Positions 3,821-53,548 of a stretch of DNA of 61,848 nt are shown here, in pieces; the first letter of the stretch is position 1; every line of letters starts with the position of its first letter. Under the pieces are notes generated by a model. That model saw nothing but the letters and a program-made list of their open reading frames with translations. It ran no database searches and was not told the DNA's origin. The position numbers were made by a program, and so were the translations under genes. The stretch lies in assembly GCA_963767115.1 (NCBI GenBank), contig CAVYCR010000003.1, forward strand, positions 175,377 to 237,224, in the 5' to 3' direction. Origin of the DNA: Candidatus Kaiserbacteria bacterium (GTDB taxonomy: Bacteria; Patescibacteriota; Minisyncoccia; Phycocordibacterales; UBA2100).

Positions 3821-4432
3821 ATGCACGCACTCGCGCCGCAGTTCGGACTCATACACCTTGTAACGGCAGTCGGTTATCCGGGCTTATTTATAGCCATATT
3901 TCTGGAGAGTGGCGTCTTCTTCGGTTTCTTCCTACCCGGCTCTTCGATGCTCTTTACCGCGGGCATACTCGCCTCGACGGGGCTTTTCGACGTCTGGATA
4001 CTTATCCCTTTGATGGCGCTCGCGGCAGCGCTCGGCGACAGCGCTGGATATTGGTTCGGCCATCAAGTCGGCGTATCTTTTTTCTTCCGCAAGGATTCGC
4101 GCTTCTTCAAGCACGAATATCTCGAGCGCGCCAAGGATTTTTATGACCGTCATGGCGTGCTTGCAGTGATCCTCGCGCGTTTCGTCCCCGTAATACGCAC
4201 CTTCGCGCCAATCATAGCGGGCATCGTCGCCATGCGCTACCGACTCTTTCTTGCTTATAACATCGCCGGAGCGCTGCTCTGGGCGGCGGGCATCACCTTC
4301 CTCGGCTACTATCTCGGGCGCAAGCTCCCCTTCATCGACCATTACATCACGCCTATAGTCATCATTGTGATCATCATAAGCATGGTGCCGCTCGTGTGGG
4401 AGTTGCGGAAACCAAAAAGTGAACGCGCGTAG
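3821..4432 (+). CDS. DedA/SNARE-associated family membrane protein
   Basis: FLESGVFFGFFLPGSSMLFTAG, GDSAGYWFG, ARFVPVIRTFAPIIAG motifs and multiple TM segments. ATG 3821 is preferred over TTG 3812. Confidence 0.85.
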   Translation: MHALAPQFGLIHLVTAVGYPGLFIAIFLESGVFFGFFLPGSSMLFTAGILASTGLFDVWILIPLMALAAALGDSAGYWFGHQVGVSFFFRKDSRFFKHEYLERAKDFYDRHGVLAVILARFVPVIRTFAPIIAGIVAMRYRLFLAYNIAGALLWAAGITFLGYYLGRKLPFIDHYITPIVIIVIIISMVPLVWELRKPKSERA

Positions 4433-4595
4433 CGCCGCCCCAGCCATAAGGTTTTGCGAACCTCGCGCAGCAGATAGAACATTCCCACGTCATACAGTAG
4501 TGGAAAACAAACCGCCTTCACGGCGGTTTGTTTTGAGGGTCGTCACATGACTAATTGCGGTATGTTCGCAAAACCTTATGGCTGGGGCGGCGCTA
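4430..4595. repeat. 166-bp element closed by a perfect 32-bp inverted repeat
   Basis: TAGCGCCGCCCCAGCCATAAGGTTTTGCGAAC (4430-4461) is the exact reverse complement of 4564-4595. The left arm contains the DedA stop codon. It lies between convergent genes. Confidence 0.9.
4504..4534. terminator. Bidirectional intrinsic terminator nested inside the 4430-4595 element
   Basis: AAAACAAACCGCC - TTCAC - GGCGGTTTGTTTT: a 13-bp stem with an A-tract and a T-tract on either side. Confidence 0.75.
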
Positions 4596-4602
4596 CTTAC
4601 TA

Positions 4603-8079: not shown

Positions 8080-8201
8080 GAGAAAAACAGTTTCTCTCAT
8101 ATAGATGTGGGTAAAAGTCCAACTCTCCAAGAATTGTGCGGTGTATACTTATTCATATGAACGCATCGGGGTCGCGTTGCGTGAGAGAAACTGTTTCTCT
8201 C
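8080..8201. repeat. Two REP-like palindromes upstream of the RAYT gene
   Basis: GAGAAAAACAGTTTCTCTC (8080-8098) and GAGAGAAACTGTTTCTCTC (8183-8201). The central base is A in one and T in the other, so the two copies are in opposite orientation. Confidence 0.85.
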
Positions 8202-8203
8202 AT

Positions 8204-8911
8204 ATGAGAATCCAACCTTACGGCATTGGTTCTGTTTTGCATATCGTCAAGCGCGGTGCGCGCGGGATGGAAATCGTGCGCGATGAAGCCGACCGAAGAA
8301 GATTCATGAATGCGCTGTATATACTGAACGAGGAATTCAGGAGCGACAATTGGGAGCGGGAAATTTCTTCAATCCCTATCGGTGCTCGCCCTGCATATTG
8401 GCCGGAGCGCAAACCACTTACTGACGTGCTCGGATGGACACTTCTTCCGAATCATCTCCACCTCCTACTTCGAGTCCGTGAAGAGCAGGAAAAAGGCGTG
8501 ACGGAATTCATGCAAAAGCTGTTTCGAAGCATGACAGGAAACTTCAATGAAAAATATGGCGAGCGCGGCAGTATATTCCAAGGACCCTACAAAAGCAGGA
8601 CGGTTGATACGGATGAGTATCTGCGATACGTCGTTCCCTATGTGATGGTTAAGAACGCGTTCGAGATGTATCCCAGTGGCCGAGAGAAGGCTCTCGAGGA
8701 TTTCGATGAGGCATGGGAATGGGCTGCGCAATACCCGTATACAAGCCTAAGTCACTATATGAGAGAAACAGTTTCTCACATTATACCCACGCCGAATGTA
8801 ATCCATGAATTATTTCCTACCCAAAAGGACTTCAGGCAGGCCTCACTAGATATGCTTGAAGCGTATATGGAAAAGCGCGATGACTTGCGCTATCTGCAAT
8901 TAGAAGATTGA
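8204..8911 (+). CDS. REP-associated tyrosine transposase (RAYT, IS200/IS605-like Y1 HUH transposase)
   Basis: HUH motif LLPNHLHLLLRV and catalytic-Tyr region IFQGPYKSRTV. About 235 aa from ATG 8204. Flanked by cognate palindromes. Confidence 0.85.
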   Translation: MRIQPYGIGSVLHIVKRGARGMEIVRDEADRRRFMNALYILNEEFRSDNWEREISSIPIGARPAYWPERKPLTDVLGWTLLPNHLHLLLRVREEQEKGVTEFMQKLFRSMTGNFNEKYGERGSIFQGPYKSRTVDTDEYLRYVVPYVMVKNAFEMYPSGREKALEDFDEAWEWAAQYPYTSLSHYMRETVSHIIPTPNVIHELFPTQKDFRQASLDMLEAYMEKRDDLRYLQLED

Positions 8912-13038: not shown

Positions 13039-13115
13039 AACGTTACATTATTTAACTGCTAATATTCGGATCGTATCATCAGCACATCGATCTCACCCAA
13101 GATATCCCCTTTTTC

Positions 13116-13140
13116 ATTGCAGAGGTCAGACCTCTGCAAT
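13116..13140. repeat. Palindrome ATTGCAGAGGTCAGACCTCTGCAAT (family copy 1)
   Basis: Perfect 12+1+12 palindrome between two pilin genes. Related copies lie at 18480, 18534 and 20552. Confidence 0.9.
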
Positions 13141-13161
13141 GAGAACTACTATTTATTACTA

Positions 13162-18419: not shown

Positions 18420-18479
18420 CCAAGTATCATAAGCGAGTCACACCCGACGTAACGGCACATTTCCCCATATTTCCAAGCC

Positions 18480-18554
18480 GCAGAGGTCAGACCTCTGCAA
18501 TGGCGGCATTTTCTCGAGGGCAAGCAACGGTTTTGCAGAGGTCTGACCTCTGCA
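18480..18554. repeat. Inverted pair of GCAGAGGTC(A/T)GACCTCTGC palindromes (family copies 2 and 3)
   Basis: 18480-18498 (central A) and 18534-18554 (central T, so opposite orientation) are 35 nt apart, between the pilB start and tRNA-Ser. Confidence 0.9.
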
Positions 18555-18616
18555 GTTATTTGTAGTAATTCTGGCAAATTGAGCGCACTGGCAAAAGGTA
18601 GTATCCTCGCACATAC

Positions 18617-18705
18617 GGAGAGATGGATGAGTGGTTTAAATCAACAGTTTACTAAACTGTCGGCCCTTCAAAGGCCCGCGAGTTCGAATCTCGCTCTCTC
18701 CGCCA
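18617..18705 (+). tRNA. tRNA-Ser, class II, anticodon ACT as read (18651-18653), CCA encoded
   Basis: GGAGAGA acceptor paired with TCTCTCC, 3-bp D stem, anticodon stem ACAGT/ACTGT with loop TTACTAA, long variable arm CGGCCCTTCAAAGGCCCG, T arm CGAGTTCGAATCTCG, discriminator G. Confidence 0.85.
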
Positions 18706-18771
18706 TAAGTATTTAGTATCGGACGTATACGGACGCCTATGACTCCGATATGATGCGGACACCTGACGCGT

Positions 18772-19700: not shown

Positions 19701-19766
19701 CTGGGAAAGTTCGAATCCCGGAGGCCCCGCCATAAGTTTTTAGTATCGGACGTATGCGGACGGCTA
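19701..19766 (+). repeat. tRNA 3'-end remnant plus duplicated downstream flank
   Basis: AGTTCGAATC + ...CCGCCA, then CGCCATAAGTTTTTAGTATCGGACGTATGCGGACGGCTA (19728-19766). That flank matches 18701-18739 at 36 of 39 positions. There is no matching 5' acceptor strand upstream, and the T loop would be 11 nt. Confidence 0.7.
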
Positions 19767-19834
19767 CCCCTACGATGCGTCGCAGAGGGCTTTAAATACC
19801 CTGTAAATAAAGGGTTTTTGCTCCCTCCACACAC

Positions 19835-20376: not shown

Positions 20377-20549
20377 CGAGGACTGAGCAGACCCACTGCT
20401 TACCCGCCATGTCGCAAGACCTCGGCGGGTTTTACTTTTCAAAAAATGACTCCTGCTGTCGAGGGCTCGGCAAAGCCTCTGAAAAGAGGCTAAAATATCC
20501 TTATGGGGCTTGGAGCAATGGGTGCTAACTGCAGACGGCCCCCTTATTT

Positions 20550-20570
20550 TACAGAGGTCAGACCTCTGCA
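20550..20570. repeat. Palindrome TACAGAGGTCAGACCTCTGCA (family copy 4)
   Basis: Core CAGAGGTCAGACCTCTG at 20552-20568, just downstream of the ABC ATPase gene. Confidence 0.85.
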
Positions 20571-20586
20571 GTGATACGTTTGGAAA

Positions 20587-24382: not shown

Positions 24383-25642
24383 TTAGCCCAACGAGTTGAA
24401 CATCTGCTCCGCAATGCGGTCGGCAGTGAGGGCTGTCTCGGAGCCAGTGTCGAGGTTCTTGAGAGTATAGCGGCCGGTGTCGCGCTCTTGGGCGCCCACG
24501 GCGATCACGAACGGTATTTTCATTTTGTCGGCCTGGCGGATCTGATCGCCGATGCGCTTGCCTGAGAAATTTACCGCGACCGCAACGTCTTCTTGACGCA
24601 AGTCTTGGGCGAGGCGCAGTGCGTGGCTCATCGCATCGTGGTCGACGACGCAGATCATGAGCTCTGTGGCTGGCGCGTATTCGGGCAAGAGCTTGTGGCT
24701 CTCGAGGAAGTCGCGCGCAGTCGCATCGCCCATGGCGAATCCTGCTGCAGGAATCGCGCTTCCTCCGAACATACTCAGGAGATTGTCGTAGCGACCGCCG
24801 CCCATGAGCGAGCGGCGATTCTCAGGAGATACATCGAAGACTTCGAAGACCATTCCGGTATAGTAATCAAATCCGCGCGTGATCTTGGTGTCGACGATCA
24901 TGTTGGCCACACCCATCTGCTGCAGGAGCATACGCAACTCTTCGAGGTACGCAGTAGAGGTCGTACGGTCGATGCGGTCAGTGAGCGCTTTGGCCGCTTC
25001 TTTATCCCCCAGCAATTCGGCAACCTTGGCATCGAAGTCATCGGCCTTCTCGCGCCGATCCAAGAGGCGCGTGATCTCCGCGCGCAGGTCTTCGGCAATA
25101 TTCATTTCGTTGTAGATGTCCTCAAGGATGCGGCGGTCGGAGACGCGGATCTCGAAATCGTGATCCTGTGCGCCGAGCGATTTCATGAGAGCGTAGGCCA
25201 TCGCGACGATCTCAGCGTCGGCCTCGATGCCACCAGTGCCGACGATGTCGGCGTTGAGCTGCCAGAACTCTCGTAAACGACCACGCTGCGGCCTTTCATA
25301 ACGAAAGAAGTTTTGCACCGAATACCAGCGCACAGGGAGCGGCAACTCACGATTCTTCGCGGCGATCATGCGCGCGACAGTCGGCGTCATCTCGGGGCGC
25401 AGCGTGACCTCGCGGTCTCCACGGTCGGTGAAGGTGTAGGTCTGCTCGTTGACGATCTCTTCGGAGGTCTTGGCGCGGTACATCTCGGCACTCTCGAGGA
25501 TCGAGGCGTTGTATTCCTCATAGCCGAAGAGCTCGCAGACGCGTTCCCAATGCTCGAAGATATAGCGCTGCACGTATTGGTCCTCAGGGTAAAAATCACG
25601 TACCCCTTTGTAGGGCTCCGTCGACAATGAGTCTCGCTTCAT
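24383..25642 (-). CDS. hisS: Histidyl-tRNA synthetase
   Basis: GVRDFYPED, class II motifs (RYERPQRGRLREFWQ; GGGRYD) and a C-terminal anticodon-binding domain. Start set at ATG 25642 (MKRDSLSTEPYKG...). The listed 74-aa extension looks non-coding. Confidence 0.92.
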   Translation of the reverse strand: MKRDSLSTEPYKGVRDFYPEDQYVQRYIFEHWERVCELFGYEEYNASILESAEMYRAKTSEEIVNEQTYTFTDRGDREVTLRPEMTPTVARMIAAKNRELPLPVRWYSVQNFFRYERPQRGRLREFWQLNADIVGTGGIEADAEIVAMAYALMKSLGAQDHDFEIRVSDRRILEDIYNEMNIAEDLRAEITRLLDRREKADDFDAKVAELLGDKEAAKALTDRIDRTTSTAYLEELRMLLQQMGVANMIVDTKITRGFDYYTGMVFEVFDVSPENRRSLMGGGRYDNLLSMFGGSAIPAAGFAMGDATARDFLESHKLLPEYAPATELMICVVDHDAMSHALRLAQDLRQEDVAVAVNFSGKRIGDQIRQADKMKIPFVIAVGAQERDTGRYTLKNLDTGSETALTADRIAEQMFNSLG

Positions 25643-25676
25643 AAACCTATTATGCCTGTGGTATACTCTCCTGTCC

Positions 25677-26138
25677 ATGAAGAGCAAAACAAAACCAGTT
25701 ATGAAAACCGACGTGAAAAATAACGGAGCCTCGGGAGATAAGCGGTTCACCGTGCGCCGCACGCCCGGCCGCGGCATGGGACTCTTTACCAACGTGCCCT
25801 TCAAGCGCGGCGATTTCGTCATCGAATACACCGGCGAGAAAATCCCGACCAAGGTGGCTGACACCTTGGAGACGCGCTATCTCTTCGAGATCGACGAGAA
25901 TTGGACGATCGACGGCAAGGAGCGCGGCAATATCGCGCGATACATCAATCATTCGTGCGGTCCCAATTGCGAATCTGAGATCACCGACGACGACCGCATC
26001 GTGATCAACGCTATAAAGGCCATCAAGCCCGGCGAAGAGCTTACGTATGATTACGGCGACGAATATTTCGACGAATTCTTGCGCCCCGAAGGCTGTCGTT
26101 GTGGTTCACCCAAGTGCAAGGCACCTGCCAAGAAGTAG
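25677..26138 (+). CDS. SET-domain protein (putative protein-lysine methyltransferase)
   Basis: RGMGLFTNVPFKRGDFVIEYTGEKI, NIARYINHSCGPNCE, ELTYDYG and a post-SET CRCGSPKC. Confidence 0.85.
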   Translation: MKSKTKPVMKTDVKNNGASGDKRFTVRRTPGRGMGLFTNVPFKRGDFVIEYTGEKIPTKVADTLETRYLFEIDENWTIDGKERGNIARYINHSCGPNCESEITDDDRIVINAIKAIKPGEELTYDYGDEYFDEFLRPEGCRCGSPKCKAPAKK

Positions 26139-26143
26139 CCGAT

Positions 26144-26265
26144 TGGCCCCGGAAAGGGATTCTTAATTTTTACGACCGAGGACCGAACCCGCAGACGCGC
26201 TTGCGCGTCGTGAGGGCGCTTGCGTCCCGCAGGGCGTAAAAATTAAGAATCCCTTTCCGGGGCCA
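26144..26265. repeat. 122-bp element closed by a perfect 31-bp inverted repeat
   Basis: TGGCCCCGGAAAGGGATTCTTAATTTTTACG (26144-26174) is the exact reverse complement of 26235-26265, with a 60-nt GC-rich spacer. It lies between the SET and VIT genes. Confidence 0.9.
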
Positions 26266-26287
26266 TCGAAATGCTATAATTAAGCAT

Positions 26288-26791
26288 ATGGACAATGCCT
26301 ATCGCCCGTCCGAAGGAGGCCGTTCGGATATATCATTCCTGCTTCAAGTCGTGCAGCCGGGCCTTGCCGGCCTTATGGACGGCTCGGTCTCAACGCTCGC
26401 ACCGATCTTCGCGGCGGCCTTCGCTACACATAGCTCGCACACCACTTTCCTCATCGGCCTCTCGGCGGCAGTCGGCGCCGGCATCTCAATGGCCTTCGCC
26501 GAAGCACTCTCCGACAGCGGCGAGGAGACCGGCCGTGGGCACCCGATGCGCCGCGGAGCGATCATCGGCTCAATGACCTTCGTCGGCGGCATCTTTCACA
26601 CACTGCCCTTCCTCATCACCAATATCACTTCCGCGCTCACGCTCGCCTACCTCATCGTCGGCATCGAGCTCATCACGATCGCGTACCTGCGCCAGCATTT
26701 CTTCAAGATGCGCTTCTGGCTCTCTATCGTGCAAGTAGTCGTCGGCGGCCTACTCGTCGTCGGCGCAGGTCTTCTCATCGGTGCCTCGTAG
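26288..26791 (+). CDS. VIT1/CCC1-family (iron/manganese transporter-like) membrane protein
   Basis: GLMDGSVSTLAPIFAAA, GAGISMAFAEALSDSGE and C-terminal TM helices. Confidence 0.75.
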   Translation: MDNAYRPSEGGRSDISFLLQVVQPGLAGLMDGSVSTLAPIFAAAFATHSSHTTFLIGLSAAVGAGISMAFAEALSDSGEETGRGHPMRRGAIIGSMTFVGGIFHTLPFLITNITSALTLAYLIVGIELITIAYLRQHFFKMRFWLSIVQVVVGGLLVVGAGLLIGAS

Positions 26792-26796
26792 AGACG

Positions 26797-26916
26797 TTGG
26801 ACGAACCGGAAGATTTTGTCGTTTTGGGGTCTTTGCAGCGCGGCGGCGCGAAACAGAGTTCTTTTCTAGCAAGAAAAGAACGACCCCAAAAGGGCAAAAT
26901 CTTCCGGTTCGTCCAA
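26797..26916 (+). repeat. Nested long-hairpin element, copy A (shares a 33-nt core with 43294-43421)
   Basis: A 22-bp outer stem (26797-26818 / 26895-26916) plus a 10-bp inner stem (TTTTGGGGTC / GACCCCAAAA). Core GGGGTCTTTGCAGCGCGGCGGCGCGAAACAGAG at 26826-26858. Inner 9-bp hairpin GTTCTTTTC-TAGCAA-GAAAAGAAC. Confidence 0.9.
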
Positions 26917-26956
26917 ATATTTTTACCTGCAAAATTTTGTGATAAAATCTCCTCTC

Positions 26957-27535
26957 ATGCGCGTGATCACCTTCGACATCGAAACGGCCAATTGGATCAC
27001 CGACACAGGCAGCAACGATCCCGCGGATCTTACGATCGCGATCGTTTGTACTCACGACTCGGAGACCGGCGAATACTCGAGTTATTTGGAAAACGAATTA
27101 CCGAAACTCTGGCCCGTCATCGAGCGCGCCGACGCGCTCCTCGGTTACAACTCCGATCATTTCGATATTCCCCTTCTCAACAAATACTATCCGGGCGACC
27201 TCACCAAGATCAAAAGCATCGACCTCATGAAGGAAGTACACGCAGTGCTCGGCCGCCGGCTCAAGCTCGACGCGCTTGCCGAAGGCACGCTCTCCGACAA
27301 GAAGCTCGACGGCAAGGGTGGACAGTCCGTCGTGTGGTGGCGCAACGGCGAGGTGGAAAAGGTGCGCGAATACTGCATCAAGGACGTCGAGCTCACACGC
27401 AAGCTCTTCGACTACGCGCTAAAAAACAACTCGCTCAAGTACAAAGAGCTCGGGCAGACACGCGAGATCAAGCTTGATACGCGAGAATGGATGCAGCCCC
27501 AGAGCGCACCGATGACCTTCTCGATGGGGTTTTAA
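26957..27535 (+). CDS. RNase H-fold 3'-5' exonuclease-like protein
   Basis: MRVITFDIETA (ExoI DxE), LGYNSDHFDIPLL (ExoII) and YCIKDVELT (ExoIII Yx3D). Confidence 0.7.
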   Translation: MRVITFDIETANWITDTGSNDPADLTIAIVCTHDSETGEYSSYLENELPKLWPVIERADALLGYNSDHFDIPLLNKYYPGDLTKIKSIDLMKEVHAVLGRRLKLDALAEGTLSDKKLDGKGGQSVVWWRNGEVEKVREYCIKDVELTRKLFDYALKNNSLKYKELGQTREIKLDTREWMQPQSAPMTFSMGF

Positions 27536-34284: not shown

Positions 34285-34938
34285 ATGGCAATCATCGGAA
34301 ATCTGCCGGGCGAGCGCTTGGCGGGTCTTGCTGCCGACACCTTCCACAAGGTTCAGCACGGAATCATCACCCTCGACGAATGGGCGTTGTTCAATCAGCG
34401 CAAGAACCCGTTCAGCTTCGAGCGCAATGAGCACGGCCACATCACCGTGACCGTGACCGGCCTCGACCTTTTGGGAGCGCAAGAAATCGCGCGACTCGAA
34501 GCGGCAGGATATCGCCTGAGCGATTGGTCGAAGTCTTGTCTCTTGAGCACGAAGCCGGACAGCTACGACGCCAACCATCGGCTCGTTGCTGGCCAGGTGT
34601 ATAAGATCGCGCTCATGCCGGGCAAAGAGATCGAACGTGACTCCGACCGCACGACCGAAAACCTTCGGAAGCGCGGAATTGAGCACTACGGCTACGGCAA
34701 GCCGCTTGCAGGCATCGTCCCGCGCATTCGCGAGGCGGTATCCGACAAACAGCTTGAGGAGATGGGCATCTGGTACGCCGCCGCGCTTCACGATCCGATC
34801 AAGGATTCTGACGGCGCTCCGGACGTGCTCAATGCGTATCGCTGTGGCGATGGTCGGTGGCTCGACGCGCGTTGGGGCAAGCCCGGCAATCAGTGGTTTG
34901 GCAATAGCGCGTTCGCGTTCCCCGTCCCGCAAGTTTGA
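34285..34938 (+). CDS. DGR target (variable) protein; the C-terminal 43 codons are the variable region
   Basis: ATG 34285 lies 7 nt after AAGGAG (34272-34277). The C-terminus ...DSDGAPDVLNAYRCGDGRWLDARWGKPGNQWFGNSAFAFPVPQV is the VR copy of the downstream template repeat. Confidence 0.85.
   Translation: MAIIGNLPGERLAGLAADTFHKVQHGIITLDEWALFNQRKNPFSFERNEHGHITVTVTGLDLLGAQEIARLEAAGYRLSDWSKSCLLSTKPDSYDANHRLVAGQVYKIALMPGKEIERDSDRTTENLRKRGIEHYGYGKPLAGIVPRIREAVSDKQLEEMGIWYAAALHDPIKDSDGAPDVLNAYRCGDGRWLDARWGKPGNQWFGNSAFAFPVPQV
34806..34932 (+). repeat. DGR variable region (VR)
   Basis: 127 nt, gap-free alignment to 35264-35390. 13 mismatches, all where TR has A. Confidence 0.9.
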
Positions 34939-35263: not shown

Positions 35264-35390
35264 TTCTGACGGCGATCCGAACGTGCTCAATGCGAATCGC
35301 AATGACGATGGTCGGTGGCTCAACGCGAATTGGGACAAGCCCGGCAATCAGTGGAATGACAATAGCGCGTTCGCGTTCCCCGTCCCGCAA
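35264..35390 (+). repeat. DGR template region (TR)
   Basis: Non-coding copy of VR, rich in AAY/GAY codons in the VR frame (SDGDPNVLNANRNDDGRWLNANWDKPGNQWNDNSAFAFPVPQ). Confidence 0.9.
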
Positions 35391-39256: not shown

Positions 39257-41143
39257 CTAGCTTTCGCGGATCACTTTCAGGAAAACGTCCTGGGGGATTT
39301 CAACCGAACCGGTGCCGCGCTCGAGCATCTTTTTCTTGCCGCGCTTCTGCTTGTCGAGGAGCTTGTTCTTGCGTGTGACGTCGCCGCCATAGAGGTATCC
39401 GGTCACGTCTTTGCGCATCGCTGAGAGGCGCCGGGATGCGATGATGCGGCCGTTGGCCTTCGCTTGGATCTTGAGCTCGAAGAGCTGGCGCGGCAGGAGC
39501 TTTTCCAATTTCTCAACCATCGTTTCCGCTTCTTGCTGGATGCGCCGGTGCGAGACGATGCGGGCAAAGGCTGGTACCGGCTCTTCCGCTACAAGCACGT
39601 CGAGGCGCACGACGTCAGCATCCTTGAGCTCCGTTATCTCGTAGGAGAGCGAGGCATAACCGCTCGAGACGCTCTTGAGCCTGTCAAAGAAACCACGCAT
39701 CAGCTCGCGCAGCGGCATCTCAGCCGAGATCTGCATCTTGCCGTCGGCAAGGGACTCGGTCGCTCCGACGACTGCTTCGTGGTCATAGAGGAGCTGTGAT
39801 ATGCCGCCGATGTATTCAGGTGGAGTAATGAGCGCAACCTTGGTCCACAGCTCGCGCACGCGCTTGGCGGTACCATCATCTGGGAAACGCGCGGGAGCGT
39901 AAATCTCTTCGACTTCGTCATTGAGATACGTGACCTCATAGACAGTCGTCGGCATCGTCACGACAAGCTCCATGCCAAACTCGCGCTTCAAGCGCTCGAT
40001 AATGATCTCGAGATGGAGCATGCCCAAGAATCCGCAACGGAAACCTTTGCCCATCACGCCGGAGGATTCTTCTTCGTAGGAGAGCGACGAGTCAGAGAGC
40101 CGCAGGCGATCAAGCGATTGGCGCAAGACCGGCAGATCGTCTTGGGATTCGGGATAGACCGAGGCCCAAATGACGGGCGTCGGCGAAAGGTATCCGGAAA
40201 GCGCAGGTGCATTATTGCGCACTGAAGTAACCGTCTCGCCGACGCTTGCGATCCCAGGCTTTTTGATGCCGGTCACGATATAGCCGATCTCGCCTTCGTG
40301 TAATTCAGCGCACGGCTTCTCCTCGGGAGAGAGCACGCCGATCTCGAGAGCGGTGAAATCCGCACCGGCCTCGACGAAGCGTAGCGCGTCACCTTTCTTG
40401 ATCGTGCCGCCAAAGACGCGCATATAGACGATCACGCCGCGGTGGTCGGAATAGCCGAAGTCGAAGACGAGTGCTTGCACGCCTTTGCCGGCATCGCTCG
40501 GCGGCGGCACGAGCTCGACGATCGCGTTTAGGACCTCGGCGACACCTTCACCCGTCTTGCCTGAAGCACCGAAGATATCTGATTCGTCGCAACCGAGAAG
40601 TAGTGCAAGCTCGCTTTTGATATCGTCGACCCGTGCATGCGGCGCGTCGATCTTGGAGACGACGGGGATGATCACGAGCCCGAGCTCGCGCGCGATCCCG
40701 AGCACCGAGAGTGTCTGTGCCTCGACGCCTTGCGTCGCATCGACGAGCAAGAGCACGCCTTCGACCGCCGAGAGCGCACGTGAGACCTCATACGAAAAGT
40801 CGACATGCCCAGGCGTATCTATAAGATTCAATGTGTAGAGGCCCGGAATCGCCGCATTTTTTTCGCGCTTCCGCCTGTCGTTCGGGTCGCGAAAAAAACG
40901 CGACGCTTCCGGGCCGCCCCCGTCTGGATATTCCCATTGCATCCGTACTGGCTGCATCTTGATCGTGATGCCACGTTCACGCTCGAGGTCCATGCGATCG
41001 AGGACCTGCGCTTGCATGTGCCGCGGCTCGATCGTGCCGGTGAGCTCGAGCATGCGGTCAGCAAGGGTCGACTTGCCGTGGTCGATGTGCGCAATAATGC
41101 TGAAATTCCTGATGTTTTTCATAAGCCTGTCTCGTAGCGACAC
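39257..41143 (-). CDS. lepA: Translation elongation factor 4 (LepA) with an insertion in the G domain
   Basis: NFSIIAHIDHGKSTLADR, DTPGHVDF, NKID-type region and a LepA C-terminal domain. About 22-24 extra residues (GGGPEASRFFRDPNDRRKREKNAAIPG) sit before the DTPGH motif. Confidence 0.93.
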   Translation of the reverse strand: MSLRDRLMKNIRNFSIIAHIDHGKSTLADRMLELTGTIEPRHMQAQVLDRMDLERERGITIKMQPVRMQWEYPDGGGPEASRFFRDPNDRRKREKNAAIPGLYTLNLIDTPGHVDFSYEVSRALSAVEGVLLLVDATQGVEAQTLSVLGIARELGLVIIPVVSKIDAPHARVDDIKSELALLLGCDESDIFGASGKTGEGVAEVLNAIVELVPPPSDAGKGVQALVFDFGYSDHRGVIVYMRVFGGTIKKGDALRFVEAGADFTALEIGVLSPEEKPCAELHEGEIGYIVTGIKKPGIASVGETVTSVRNNAPALSGYLSPTPVIWASVYPESQDDLPVLRQSLDRLRLSDSSLSYEEESSGVMGKGFRCGFLGMLHLEIIIERLKREFGMELVVTMPTTVYEVTYLNDEVEEIYAPARFPDDGTAKRVRELWTKVALITPPEYIGGISQLLYDHEAVVGATESLADGKMQISAEMPLRELMRGFFDRLKSVSSGYASLSYEITELKDADVVRLDVLVAEEPVPAFARIVSHRRIQQEAETMVEKLEKLLPRQLFELKIQAKANGRIIASRRLSAMRKDVTGYLYGGDVTRKNKLLDKQKRGKKKMLERGTGSVEIPQDVFLKVIRES

Positions 41144-42892: not shown

Positions 42893-42918
42893 AAAAGAGC
42901 CCGATTAAGGGCTCTTTT
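42893..42918. terminator. Bidirectional hairpin between murJ and rnpB
   Basis: AAAAGAGCCC-GATTAA-GGGCTCTTTT. Confidence 0.7.
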
Positions 42919-42921
42919 GTG

Positions 42922-43256
42922 CCTACACCATAAGCCGGATTCTGTGCTGAATTTAATCAGGGCAGTCATATATCTGGGATCGTTGTTACCAACAACCTCA
43001 AGCGGCTCTCTTGTTACCACGCGTGGTTGCAACAAGCACGGCCTTGCACGCAAGTAGGAATTTTGCCGTTGCACCTCCATGTCGCCATGGAGTTCATCCG
43101 CCGAAGGCGGAGCTCTCGCCTCTCGGCTTGAGCGTTTCTGTTCGCATCCCTGGGATTACCCCGACGGGTGTTACCCGCTACCGTTCTCCACTTTTGTGGG
43201 CGTGTCCGGACTTTCCTCTCCTCGATCACTCTCGGAGCGACTGCTTGGCGCAGAAA
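42922..43256 (-). ncRNA. rnpB: RNase P RNA (bacterial type)
   Basis: The minus strand reads ...GAGGAGAGGAAAGUCCGGACACGCC... (universal GGAAAGUCCGG P4 strand) and, near the 3' end, ...CACAGAAUCCGGCUUAUGG... (the ACAGAAnCCGGCUUA P4/P1 strand). Length is ~335 nt. Ends are approximate. Confidence 0.85.
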
Positions 43257-43293: not shown

Positions 43294-43421
43294 GTAGCGC
43301 AGGGGTTCCGAAATGGTTTTCGGGGTCGGGATTTTCTTGCTAGCCAAGTAAATAATTTGGCCCTCTGTTTCGCGCCGCCGCGCTGCAAAGACCCCGAAAA
43401 CCATTTCGGAACCTGCGCTAC
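43294..43421 (-). repeat. Nested long-hairpin element, copy B (reverse orientation relative to copy A)
   Basis: Arms 43294-43327 and 43390-43421 pair at 32 positions with a GG bulge. 43363-43395 is the exact reverse complement of the 33-nt core at 26826-26858. CTAGCAAGAAAA is also shared. The right arm contains the stop codon of the DUF192 gene. Confidence 0.9.
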
Positions 43422-45862: not shown

Positions 45863-45875
45863 CGTGCCAGGCACG
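45863..45875. repeat. Palindrome CGTGCCAGGCACG flanking the second RAYT gene
   Basis: Perfect 6+1+6 palindrome, 68 nt beyond the 3' end of the RAYT gene. Confidence 0.8.
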
Positions 45876-45942: not shown

Positions 45943-46530
45943 TTACAATGATAGACTCTTCGTAAGTGCATTGCGCAACATCATGAGTTCTTCGGCAGGT
46001 TCAGGCGTATTAATCCACGCTTGGTAGTCCGCAGGCAAATCTACAGGCATTTCTGCAAGCAATGAGTCTTCTTGAAAGTTTCCGTTGATCCGACGATAGG
46101 CGCTTCCCCATCGCCATTCCTCCGGCCGCAAAGTAAGCTTTGCACGTACCGGGTTGCGCTCGATATACTTCAGGACCGTCAAGAAATATCTGTCGTTCTC
46201 GACAAGAAACGACTTGTAACGATCTTGGTATATATGTCCTTCGCCGATCGTATTTGTGCCTGCACGCACGCGATGCGCATGTGTGGAGCAGAGCCATTGC
46301 ATGGATCGAGATATATCTTTGTCGCGAAGCGGAAAGAGTTGCAGATGCCAATGGTTGGGCATCAGCACGTACGAAAGAATGCGCATATCGAAGAGTTCTT
46401 TCATCTCGATGAGCAACAACTCAAATTCTTTATACTCTTGTGCCGTATGGAAAAGCGTTATGCGACCATTTGCACGGTTGATGACGTGGTACACGCAATC
46501 GCCGATATCGATACGGGGACCCCTACCCAT
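45943..46530 (-). CDS. Second REP-associated tyrosine transposase (RAYT, Y1 HUH family)
   Basis: HUH motif VLMPNHWHLQLF and catalytic Tyr IYQDRYKSFLV. Start set at ATG 46530 (MGRGPRIDIG...). Confidence 0.85.
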   Translation of the reverse strand: MGRGPRIDIGDCVYHVINRANGRITLFHTAQEYKEFELLLIEMKELFDMRILSYVLMPNHWHLQLFPLRDKDISRSMQWLCSTHAHRVRAGTNTIGEGHIYQDRYKSFLVENDRYFLTVLKYIERNPVRAKLTLRPEEWRWGSAYRRINGNFQEDSLLAEMPVDLPADYQAWINTPEPAEELMMLRNALTKSLSL

Positions 46531-46566
46531 ATACTTTGCATTATGACATGGTTTTGGCGACTCCCG

Positions 46567-46579
46567 CGTGCCTGGCACG
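46567..46579. repeat. Palindrome CGTGCCTGGCACG, the partner of 45863-45875 with the central base inverted
   Basis: Same arms as 45863-45875, with central T instead of A, so opposite orientation. It lies 37 nt upstream of the RAYT start. Confidence 0.8.
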
Positions 46580-53364: not shown

Positions 53365-53398
53365 ATTCTGTGGCTGCATCGGCGTGAACGCCAATGTT

Positions 53399-53517
53399 CC
53401 CTCTCCATGTACTCAGGGAGAGGGTCAGGGTGAGGGTTCTTCGATTTCGCAGCAACTGTTCGACTGCAGCAAAAATACACCCTCACCCCCGCCCTCTCCC
53501 TGAGTACATGGAGAGGG
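53399..53517. repeat. 119-bp imperfect inverted repeat built from CCCTCTCC...GGGAGAGGG sub-palindromes
   Basis: CCCTCTCCATGTACTCAGGGAGAGGGTCAGGGTGAGGGT (53399-53437) against 53479-53517, with about 3 mismatches. Confidence 0.85.
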
Positions 53518-53548
53518 AGTAAATCGGCTCGAAAGGGTTCCTGTAACG

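Follow-up and report, generated by a model that had tools for sequence, protein, structure and literature searches.

Two long intergenic hairpins in the 61,848-nt stretch of DNA analysed here (referred to as the window) have an identical core and outer arms that are unrelated in sequence but nonetheless self-complementary. This combination raises the question of what kind of element they represent, as a first-pass annotation had taken it to argue against a transposing MITE, whose terminal repeats would be the conserved part, and to favour a structured RNA or DNA element. Both hairpins were found where that annotation had placed them, and their features are as follows:

26797..26916, + strand: copy A, the whole 120-nt foldback element (fold, covariance model R1)
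26797..26818, + strand: A, 5′ outer arm TTGGACGAACCGGAAGATTTTG, lineage-specific, with a perfect reverse complement at 26895-26916
26895..26916, + strand: A, 3′ outer arm; arm and P1 pair at 33/35 positions
26822..26831, + strand: A, 5′ strand of P1, TTTTGGGGTC, with its partner GACCCCAAAA at 26882-26891
26832..26857, + strand: A, asymmetric conserved centre TTTG-CA-GCGC(GGCG)GCGC-GAAA-CAGA (P1b, internal loop, P2 hairpin)
26858..26881, + strand: A, P3 hairpin GTTCTTTTCT-AGCA-AGAAAAGAAC, 10 bp with an AGCA loop
43294..43421, - strand: copy B, the whole 128-nt foldback element (fold, covariance model R1)
43401..43421, - strand: B, 5′ outer arm GTAGCGCAGGTTCCGAAATGG, including the DUF192 stop codon TAG (43418-43420)
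43294..43316, - strand: B, 3′ outer arm CCATTTCGGAACCCCTGCGCTAC, with a 2-nt bulge
43317..43400, - strand: B, P1 enclosing the centre; TTTTCGGGGTC (43390-43400) pairs with GACCCCGAAAA (43317-43327)
43364..43389, - strand: B, asymmetric conserved centre, identical to that of A
43328..43363, - strand: B, P3 region, disrupted (alignment; R1 score 79 vs 96 bits)

As had been reported, the window contains exactly two instances of the 33-nt core GGGGTCTTTGCAGCGCGGCGGCGCGAAACAGAG, at 26826-26858 (+) and 43363-43395 (-), and 0 occurrences are expected by chance even when 3 mismatches are allowed (100 shuffles). Beyond the core, A and B have in common the block CTAGCAAGAAAA, which is specific to the lineage of the window, and the inner stem TTTT(C)GGGGTC / GACCCC(G)AAAA, in which an extra C in one arm of copy B is indeed answered by an extra G in the other. 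The outer arms of A and B are mutually unrelated, and in the window each matches only its own partner, which is perfect in A and carries the 2-nt bulge in B. Folding yielded -80.0 kcal/mol for copy A (z = -12.6) and -73.6 kcal/mol for copy B (z = -9.7), with 0/200 shuffles equalling the value in either case. Scored with covariance model R1, which was built from 11 copies, copy A reached 95.7 bits on the + strand and 16.3 bits on the - strand, and copy B 79.4 bits. A and B were the only members that R1 detected in the window, which amounts to just two copies in 62 kb of this genome.

The fold of the element contains a three-way junction with 0 unpaired junction bases. In P1, GGTC/GACC is invariant among the canonical copies, with covariation further out, and P1b (TTTG/CAGA), which carries a conserved U.G pair, leads via an asymmetric internal loop (CA opposite GAAA) to the 4-bp GC hairpin P2. 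Copy B has a small unrelated hairpin (CCAAATTATTTACTTGG) in place of the 5′ strand of P3.

The DUF192 and exonuclease homologues place the window in the Patescibacteria, of the Paceibacteria/Kaiserbacteria type. A degenerate scan of the GTDB species genomes revealed the element in only two of them, "Uncultured bacterium A14_bin-1224" and Ca. Kaiserbacteria bog_1339, and a second scan anchored on another part of the element returned the same set; 17/28 and about 8/17 matches of the degenerate genome scans were discarded as chance matches in unrelated taxa. Exact scans of GTDB genomes and viral contigs, with the core or with the core plus CTAGCAAGAAAA, gave 0 matches. Among JGI metagenome contigs, a 22-mer of the core recovered 5 true elements (L004 and L006, on one 482-kb contig, and L016, L018 and L020), the remaining 20 matches being chance ones in G+C-rich coding DNA. 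A14_bin-1224, which is related to the window genome (its locus L050 has DUF192, rnpB, MurJ and LepA in the same order), had at least 11 full copies, spread over seven loci, in the parts that were examined, along with no fewer than 7 partial ones, and 2 copies each were present in the window, in contig Ga0210057_1000014 and in bog_1339. R1, a model of the kind that the first-pass annotation had proposed, detected A and B and additionally picked up two divergent members, L020:5005-5090 and L034:3697-3778. Words of the core were also present in Logan assemblies of pond, peat, soil, permafrost, rhizosphere, freshwater and small-particle ("viral") metagenomes, the A14 type being present in pond samples (runs X2-X7). 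The match of most of these Logan contigs to an A14 copy was limited to the stretch from GGTC to GACC, beyond which their flanks were mutually complementary, yet unrelated from contig to contig.

In A14_bin-1224 and Ga0210057_1000014, the repeated unit was the entire 120-bp hairpin, arms included, with terminal inverted repeats of ~30 bp in the full A14 copies. Immediately outside the hairpin lay 8-bp direct repeats that differed by site (TATTACGA, TATATCTT, TGCGTATC, CTCTTGTC, GAGATGTG and others). Such a target-site duplication (TSD) was perfect (8/8) at a fixed offset for 9/11 copies (A14, L004/L006) and matched at 7/8 for the other 2, compared to 1/121 matches among non-cognate flank pairs, and a third lineage with a TSD, TAGGATA(T), was found on a contig from runs X14/X15. 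A14 moreover contained truncated left halves, one copy that had landed in the tip of an older one, and one copy adjoining a right-half remnant. An origin of the arms from target DNA or pre-existing palindromes was rejected, as the TSDs are located beyond the arms and no arm sequence recurs elsewhere in the window. A search by tips and half-elements through ~85 kb of A14 sequence and through the window revealed only truncated copies, and no autonomous IS or transposase whose ends match those of the element.

The tips of the element often read ..CGTATCCCC. A sequence near the DnaA-box consensus (TTATCCACA / TGTGGATAA) recurred in or beside the duplicated target (L004, L006, L018, L031, L034, L047, L052, L064 and L067), and these DnaA-box-like flanks resemble the TATCC(C/A)C tip of the element itself. 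Flanks like TTATCCAC, or tip-like sequence, may reflect a target preference; a reading of the flanks as DnaA boxes or an origin was rejected, the contexts being ordinary intergenic regions.

In the window, no flanking direct repeat above about 4-5 nt was found at A or B, and neither has the TATCCCC tip, so that their own mobility is argued from homology with the rest of the family. Because flanking direct repeats of prokaryotic MITEs fade in older copies (PMC10969869), the missing TSDs fit old copies. In the case of A, whose length equals that of the 120-bp TSD-bounded copies in A14_bin-1224, the missing TSD also fits a recombinant joint, since this copy lies at a gene-order breakpoint when the window is compared with relatives L070 and L071. 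The order in these relatives is VIT1-SET(-)-HisRS(+)-exonuclease, while that of the window is HisRS(-), SET(+), a 122-nt hairpin (26144-26265), VIT1, copy A and the exonuclease. The region 24386-26957 of the window has thereby undergone a local rearrangement relative to L070 and L071, with long hairpin elements at 2/3 of the junctions.

Copy A begins 5 nt past the VIT1 stop codon (TAG 26789-26791), ahead of an RNase_H_2-type exonuclease gene (ATG 26957), and copy B overlaps the DUF192 stop codon ahead of the rnpB promoter and gene (42916-43256, -). The description of hairpins right after a stop codon and co-oriented with the flanking genes therefore stands for A and B, but it does not extend to the family: among the other lineages, the orientation relative to co-directional neighbours was mixed (~3 same and ~6 opposite, by crude gene calls), and by the same calls some copies sit between divergent or convergent genes. 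Copy B was missing from the DUF192-rnpB spacer of three relatives (L001, L002 and L071, with a DUF192 identity of 61-70% to the window), in which the rnpB promoter follows almost directly after the DUF192 stop codon. The element-free spacer of the closest relative (L001:1108-1190) contains GGAGGTCCGACC...GACCTTGCAGAGAGG, a loose likeness to joined P1 strands and the core TTGCAG/AGAGG that may be chance or an old footprint; this spacer gave no score with R1. In A14_bin-1224, L050:617-797 holds a full MITE plus right-half remnant directly 3′ of the DUF192 gene. This A14 copy has the opposite orientation and different arms compared to copy B, with ~4.7 kb inserted before rnpB, and the two are read as independent insertions rather than as common descent.

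Other genomes thus display intergenic insertion, 8-bp target duplication, double-digit copy number, truncated and nested remnants, and presence/absence at orthologous sites, and the family as a whole has the size, non-coding nature, terminal inverted repeats, TSDs and dispersed and degenerate copies of a MITE. The earlier argument against a transposing MITE is not supported, in view of the whole hairpin being the repeated unit, of the site-specific 8-bp TSDs, of the truncated and nested copies, and of the absence of B in three relatives. A and B are therefore quite probably two copies of a ~120-bp non-coding foldback transposable element (MITE) circulating in Patescibacteria of the Paceibacteria/Kaiserbacteria type.

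The observation behind that argument, namely a conserved core with changing yet paired arms, proved true of every further lineage found. Between eight lineages, the mean identity of the arms outside P1 was 0.55, against 0.52 +/- 0.06 after shuffling, whereas the 31-32-nt centre was 0.94-1.00 identical. For the core the value was 0.97, of which 20-22 bases are fixed by ascertainment, as the elements were collected with core search patterns; the remaining core identity is real, as is evident from the differently anchored scan and the Logan contigs. Arms and P1 paired at 28-33 of about 35 positions in every lineage, the additional copies thus keeping the outer pairing, and 90% of cells were paired, compared to 77-79% in shuffles and 31-55% with slid partners. 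Changes on both sides were seen for 12/16 pairs of the arms and for 10/10 pairs of P3 across the family, with AGCA, AGTA, AGAA or AGCT as the P3 loop. In P2, 2/5 pairs had changed in a compensatory manner in L034:3697-3778, and L020:5005-5090 had gained a G-C pair by insertion; for P1b, support was limited to a possible shift in L020. A second alignment (A3) was fitted to the model and is hence biased toward the proposed structure. Because transposons are expected to have paired inverted repeats for DNA-level reasons, P2 and P3 are the informative helices. The compensatory changes in these inner helices uphold the part of the earlier reading that saw a structured element, and a fold in single-stranded RNA or DNA is plausible, although that structure no longer speaks against a MITE. 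The pattern observed here is the reverse of what would be expected from a plain MITE, namely ends that are conserved around a freely varying interior, and to that extent speaks against such a model.

The window contains several further repeats. Four other long intergenic hairpins, at 26144-26265 (122 nt), 53398-53518 (121 nt), 4429-4596 (168 nt) and 40840-40915 (76 nt), have arms of 28-41 nt and interiors unrelated to the MITE family, the 122- and 121-nt ones being MITE-sized. Those at 26144-26265, 53398-53518 and 40840-40915 (fold z of -9.4, -12.9 and -4.9) were rejected as members, R1 giving generic-hairpin scores on both strands, and 4429-4596 was absent from the R1 matches in the window; its tip, GTAGCGC...GCGCTAC, is common with copy B. 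These four hairpins may belong to other foldback element families. A 23-nt palindrome, TGCAGAGGTC(A/T)GACCTCTGCA, occurs in four copies (13115-13143, 18476-18504, 18531-18559 and 20547-20575), two of them just upstream of tRNA-Ser, and represents a REP-like family whose GGTC/GACC and TTGCAGAGG segments faintly echo the centre of the MITE. The tRNA-Ser 3′ end and ~45 nt downstream of it are repeated (81%) 1 kb further on (18681-18749 and 19708-19776), bracketing an Asp/Glu racemase gene with no second tRNA called, and could be an att-like duplication left by integration. Finally, a 127-nt direct repeat (34806-34932 and 35264-35390, 90% identical and 458 nt apart) lies in or beside ORFs without a Pfam match.

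Two RAYT-like genes were also noted. At 45943-46578 (-), the window encodes a Y1 (HUH) transposase that is intact, bears HWH and YIERNP motifs and matches Pfam Y1_Tnp (8.5e-16) and, below the cutoff, NCBIfam REP_Tyr_transpos (REP-associated tyrosine transposase, 4e-17). It is flanked on both sides, in inverted orientation, by the palindrome CGTGCC(A/T)GGCACG (45863-45875 and 46567-46579), which is a RAYT-plus-REP arrangement. The ORF at 8105-8911 (+) has no Pfam match but resembles the RAYT-like protein encoded in A14 at L067:5030-5728 (32% identity, tblastn 2e-17), and four copies of the 21-nt palindrome TGAGAGAAACAGTTTCTCTCA surround it (8078, 8181, 8759 and 8908), so that ORF and palindromes may form a second, divergent RAYT module.

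As the main alternative, the centre may be a functional RNA cargo. Extended to the entire element, this reading would have a structured RNA on the + strand (an sRNA, a 3′-UTR processing or stability module, or a new small ribozyme) that serves either host or element, with the long variable stem as its closing or processing helix and with mobility being secondary, which we consider distinctly unlikely. Such an RNA would fit the near-invariant junction with covarying P2 and P3, the conserved U.G pair in P1b, the co-orientation of A and B with their upstream gene, and the more stable folding of the + strand than of the - strand in 11/11 lineages, which is mostly owing to the shared centre. The mismatches in the arms, however, showed no strand bias (8 G.U vs 5 A.C), no promoter was predicted for the elements, and the mixed orientations and positions between divergent genes described above argue against it as well. 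A full element was present on one 164-nt contig of a soil metatranscriptome (run X9), but at a depth of 2.8 this contig may be DNA carry-over; two sister metatranscriptomes of the same study contained no element, and none of the RNA runs searched contained the window type. The core, for which a known IS end or Rfam family had initially been considered, matched no Rfam 15 family at the gathering score, ribozymes included (hammerhead, twister, twister-sister, pistol, hatchet and HDV-like), and relaxing the threshold to E <= 10 added nothing beyond generic miRNA models of long hairpins and a chance match to manA-II; no IS was found in the sequence examined either. Comparison by hand with the hammerhead (both strands), hairpin-ribozyme loops, the kink-turn and the Tn3 inverted repeat gave short coincidences only.

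The presence of RAYT-like genes in the same genomes (the two in the window and L067:5030-5728 in A14) could in turn suggest that A and B are REPIN-like elements moved by such Y1 (HUH) enzymes. Recognition of a single-stranded DNA hairpin shape by RAYTs would explain the freely changing arms, and the long hairpin-forming intergenic repeats of REP/REPIN systems are similar to those seen here. GTAG is moreover the conserved head of REPs, and both copy B and hairpin 4429-4596 start with GTAGCGC and end with GCGCTAC, but GTAG is lacking from copy A and from most other lineages. In REPINs, the REP ends are kept while the spacer varies, and the repeat flanks the RAYT gene, whereas each RAYT-like gene here is flanked by a palindrome of its own (CGTGCCWGGCACG, TGAGAGAAACAGTTTCTCTCA or, in A14, TACCAAGGACGGTCCTTGGTA) and none by this element. 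Since, in addition, Y1 transposases of the IS200/IS605 type and REPs are not known to make a target duplication whereas this family makes one of 8 bp, we consider the RAYT-like proteins unlinked to the element, and a REPIN-like nature very unlikely; the NCBIfam score of 62.5 against a cutoff of 80 points in the same direction. Even less credible is a role of the hairpins as intrinsic terminators or insulators for the genes upstream, in which case they would be unusually long and would have an inner module in common by happenstance. Both copies start at a stop codon, ATATTTTTA follows copy A, and the P3 hairpin of the - strand followed by TCTGTTTC scores as terminator-like, but no U-tract follows the stem in B or in the A14 copies, and a G+C-rich stem with a direct U-tract on the transcribed strand was not found. 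The element further occurs in either orientation and between divergent genes, its TSDs and copy-number bursts are foreign to terminators, and L001, L002 and L071 lack it at the same spacer. Integron attC sites resemble the element in being imperfect hairpins right after a stop codon that keep their fold rather than their sequence over part of their length. This candidate was rejected because the conservation pattern is reversed, attC sites keeping their outer R″/L″-L′/R′ boxes while their centre varies, and neither an integrase among the neighbours examined nor a cassette array was found; attC recombination is also not known to leave 8-bp duplications. The element belongs neither with REP/REPINs, intrinsic terminators or attC sites nor to any Rfam family.

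Among described mobile elements, the Correia elements (CREE) of Neisseria are likewise ~100-200 bp long and non-coding, with terminal inverted repeats, a target-site duplication and many intergenic copies, including copies between a gene and the next promoter. Correia elements, however, duplicate TA instead of 8 bp, their inverted repeats are conserved whereas the arms of this family are at chance identity between lineages around a nearly invariant asymmetric centre, and they have no sequence similarity to the family found here, whose host phylum is Patescibacteria. The ERIC/IRU sequences of enterobacteria are similarly imperfect palindromes (about 127 bp) in intergenic or 3′ positions. ERICs are conserved over most of their length within the family, their central inverted repeat is described as well conserved, and no invariant asymmetric three-way junction has been described for them, by which description they are set apart. 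A full-text literature search found no paper describing MITEs of Candidate-phyla-radiation bacteria. We regard the element as a new family of MITEs, atypical in its conserved and structured centre: unlike in described MITEs, it is this asymmetric centre that is conserved, and not the terminal repeats.

The mobile unit of this MITE is the entire hairpin, in which short tips are followed by a ~15-20 bp arm that is lineage-specific yet self-complementary, and then by a semi-conserved inner stem (TTTTnGGGGTC / GACCCCnAAAA) that leads to a three-way junction built from the nearly invariant TTTG-CA-GCGC-loop-GCGC-GAAA-CAGA domain and a covarying hairpin with an AGCA loop. Its movement would need a trans-acting enzyme making 8-bp staggered cuts. 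A and B would be older insertions that are probably immobile, given their lack of a TSD and of the TATCCCC tip and the broken P3 of B, and the position of A at the joint of a local rearrangement would account for its missing TSD. With modest confidence, we suggest that selection keeps the centre for a single-stranded DNA or RNA fold on which the element itself depends in order to be moved or copied, the likeliest role of this fold being that of a cis-acting handle for mobilisation, with pairing being all that is required of the arms.

As for the host, any transcript crossing the element would contain a ~50-bp hairpin, a likely RNase III target or transcription barrier in read-through from the upstream gene to the next promoter. 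In Correia RNA the whole element forms a long hairpin that RNase III cuts at the inverted repeats, MITE transcripts more generally form stable stem-loops that are cut by RNase III or RNase E, and ERIC/IRU sequences alter mRNA decay in an orientation-dependent manner (PMC10969869). By analogy with Correia and ERIC, the effect of this element would likely run via an RNase III cut or exposed RNase E sites.

A bolder reading, to which we assign a minor chance, is that the fold of the invariant three-way-junction centre is functional and makes the element a new kind of hairpin-dependent mobile element. The centre would then be either a structure-specific handle or a small catalytic or protein-binding RNA hitch-hiking on a MITE. 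If it is a handle, an enzyme could move any long hairpin bearing the centre, leaving the arm sequence free, and under both of these possibilities selection would act on the centre and on pairing rather than on the sequence of the terminal repeats. The genomes of Candidate-phyla-radiation bacteria are very small, and the element family occurs widely in metagenomes from peat, soil, pond and freshwater. Found at gene-order breakpoints and between genes and promoters, the family is a practical marker of genome plasticity and strain variation. Its reversed conservation makes it a clean natural experiment on the requirements for the persistence of a non-autonomous element, and if the centre is a recognition fold or an RNA with an activity of its own, it would represent a new mechanism.
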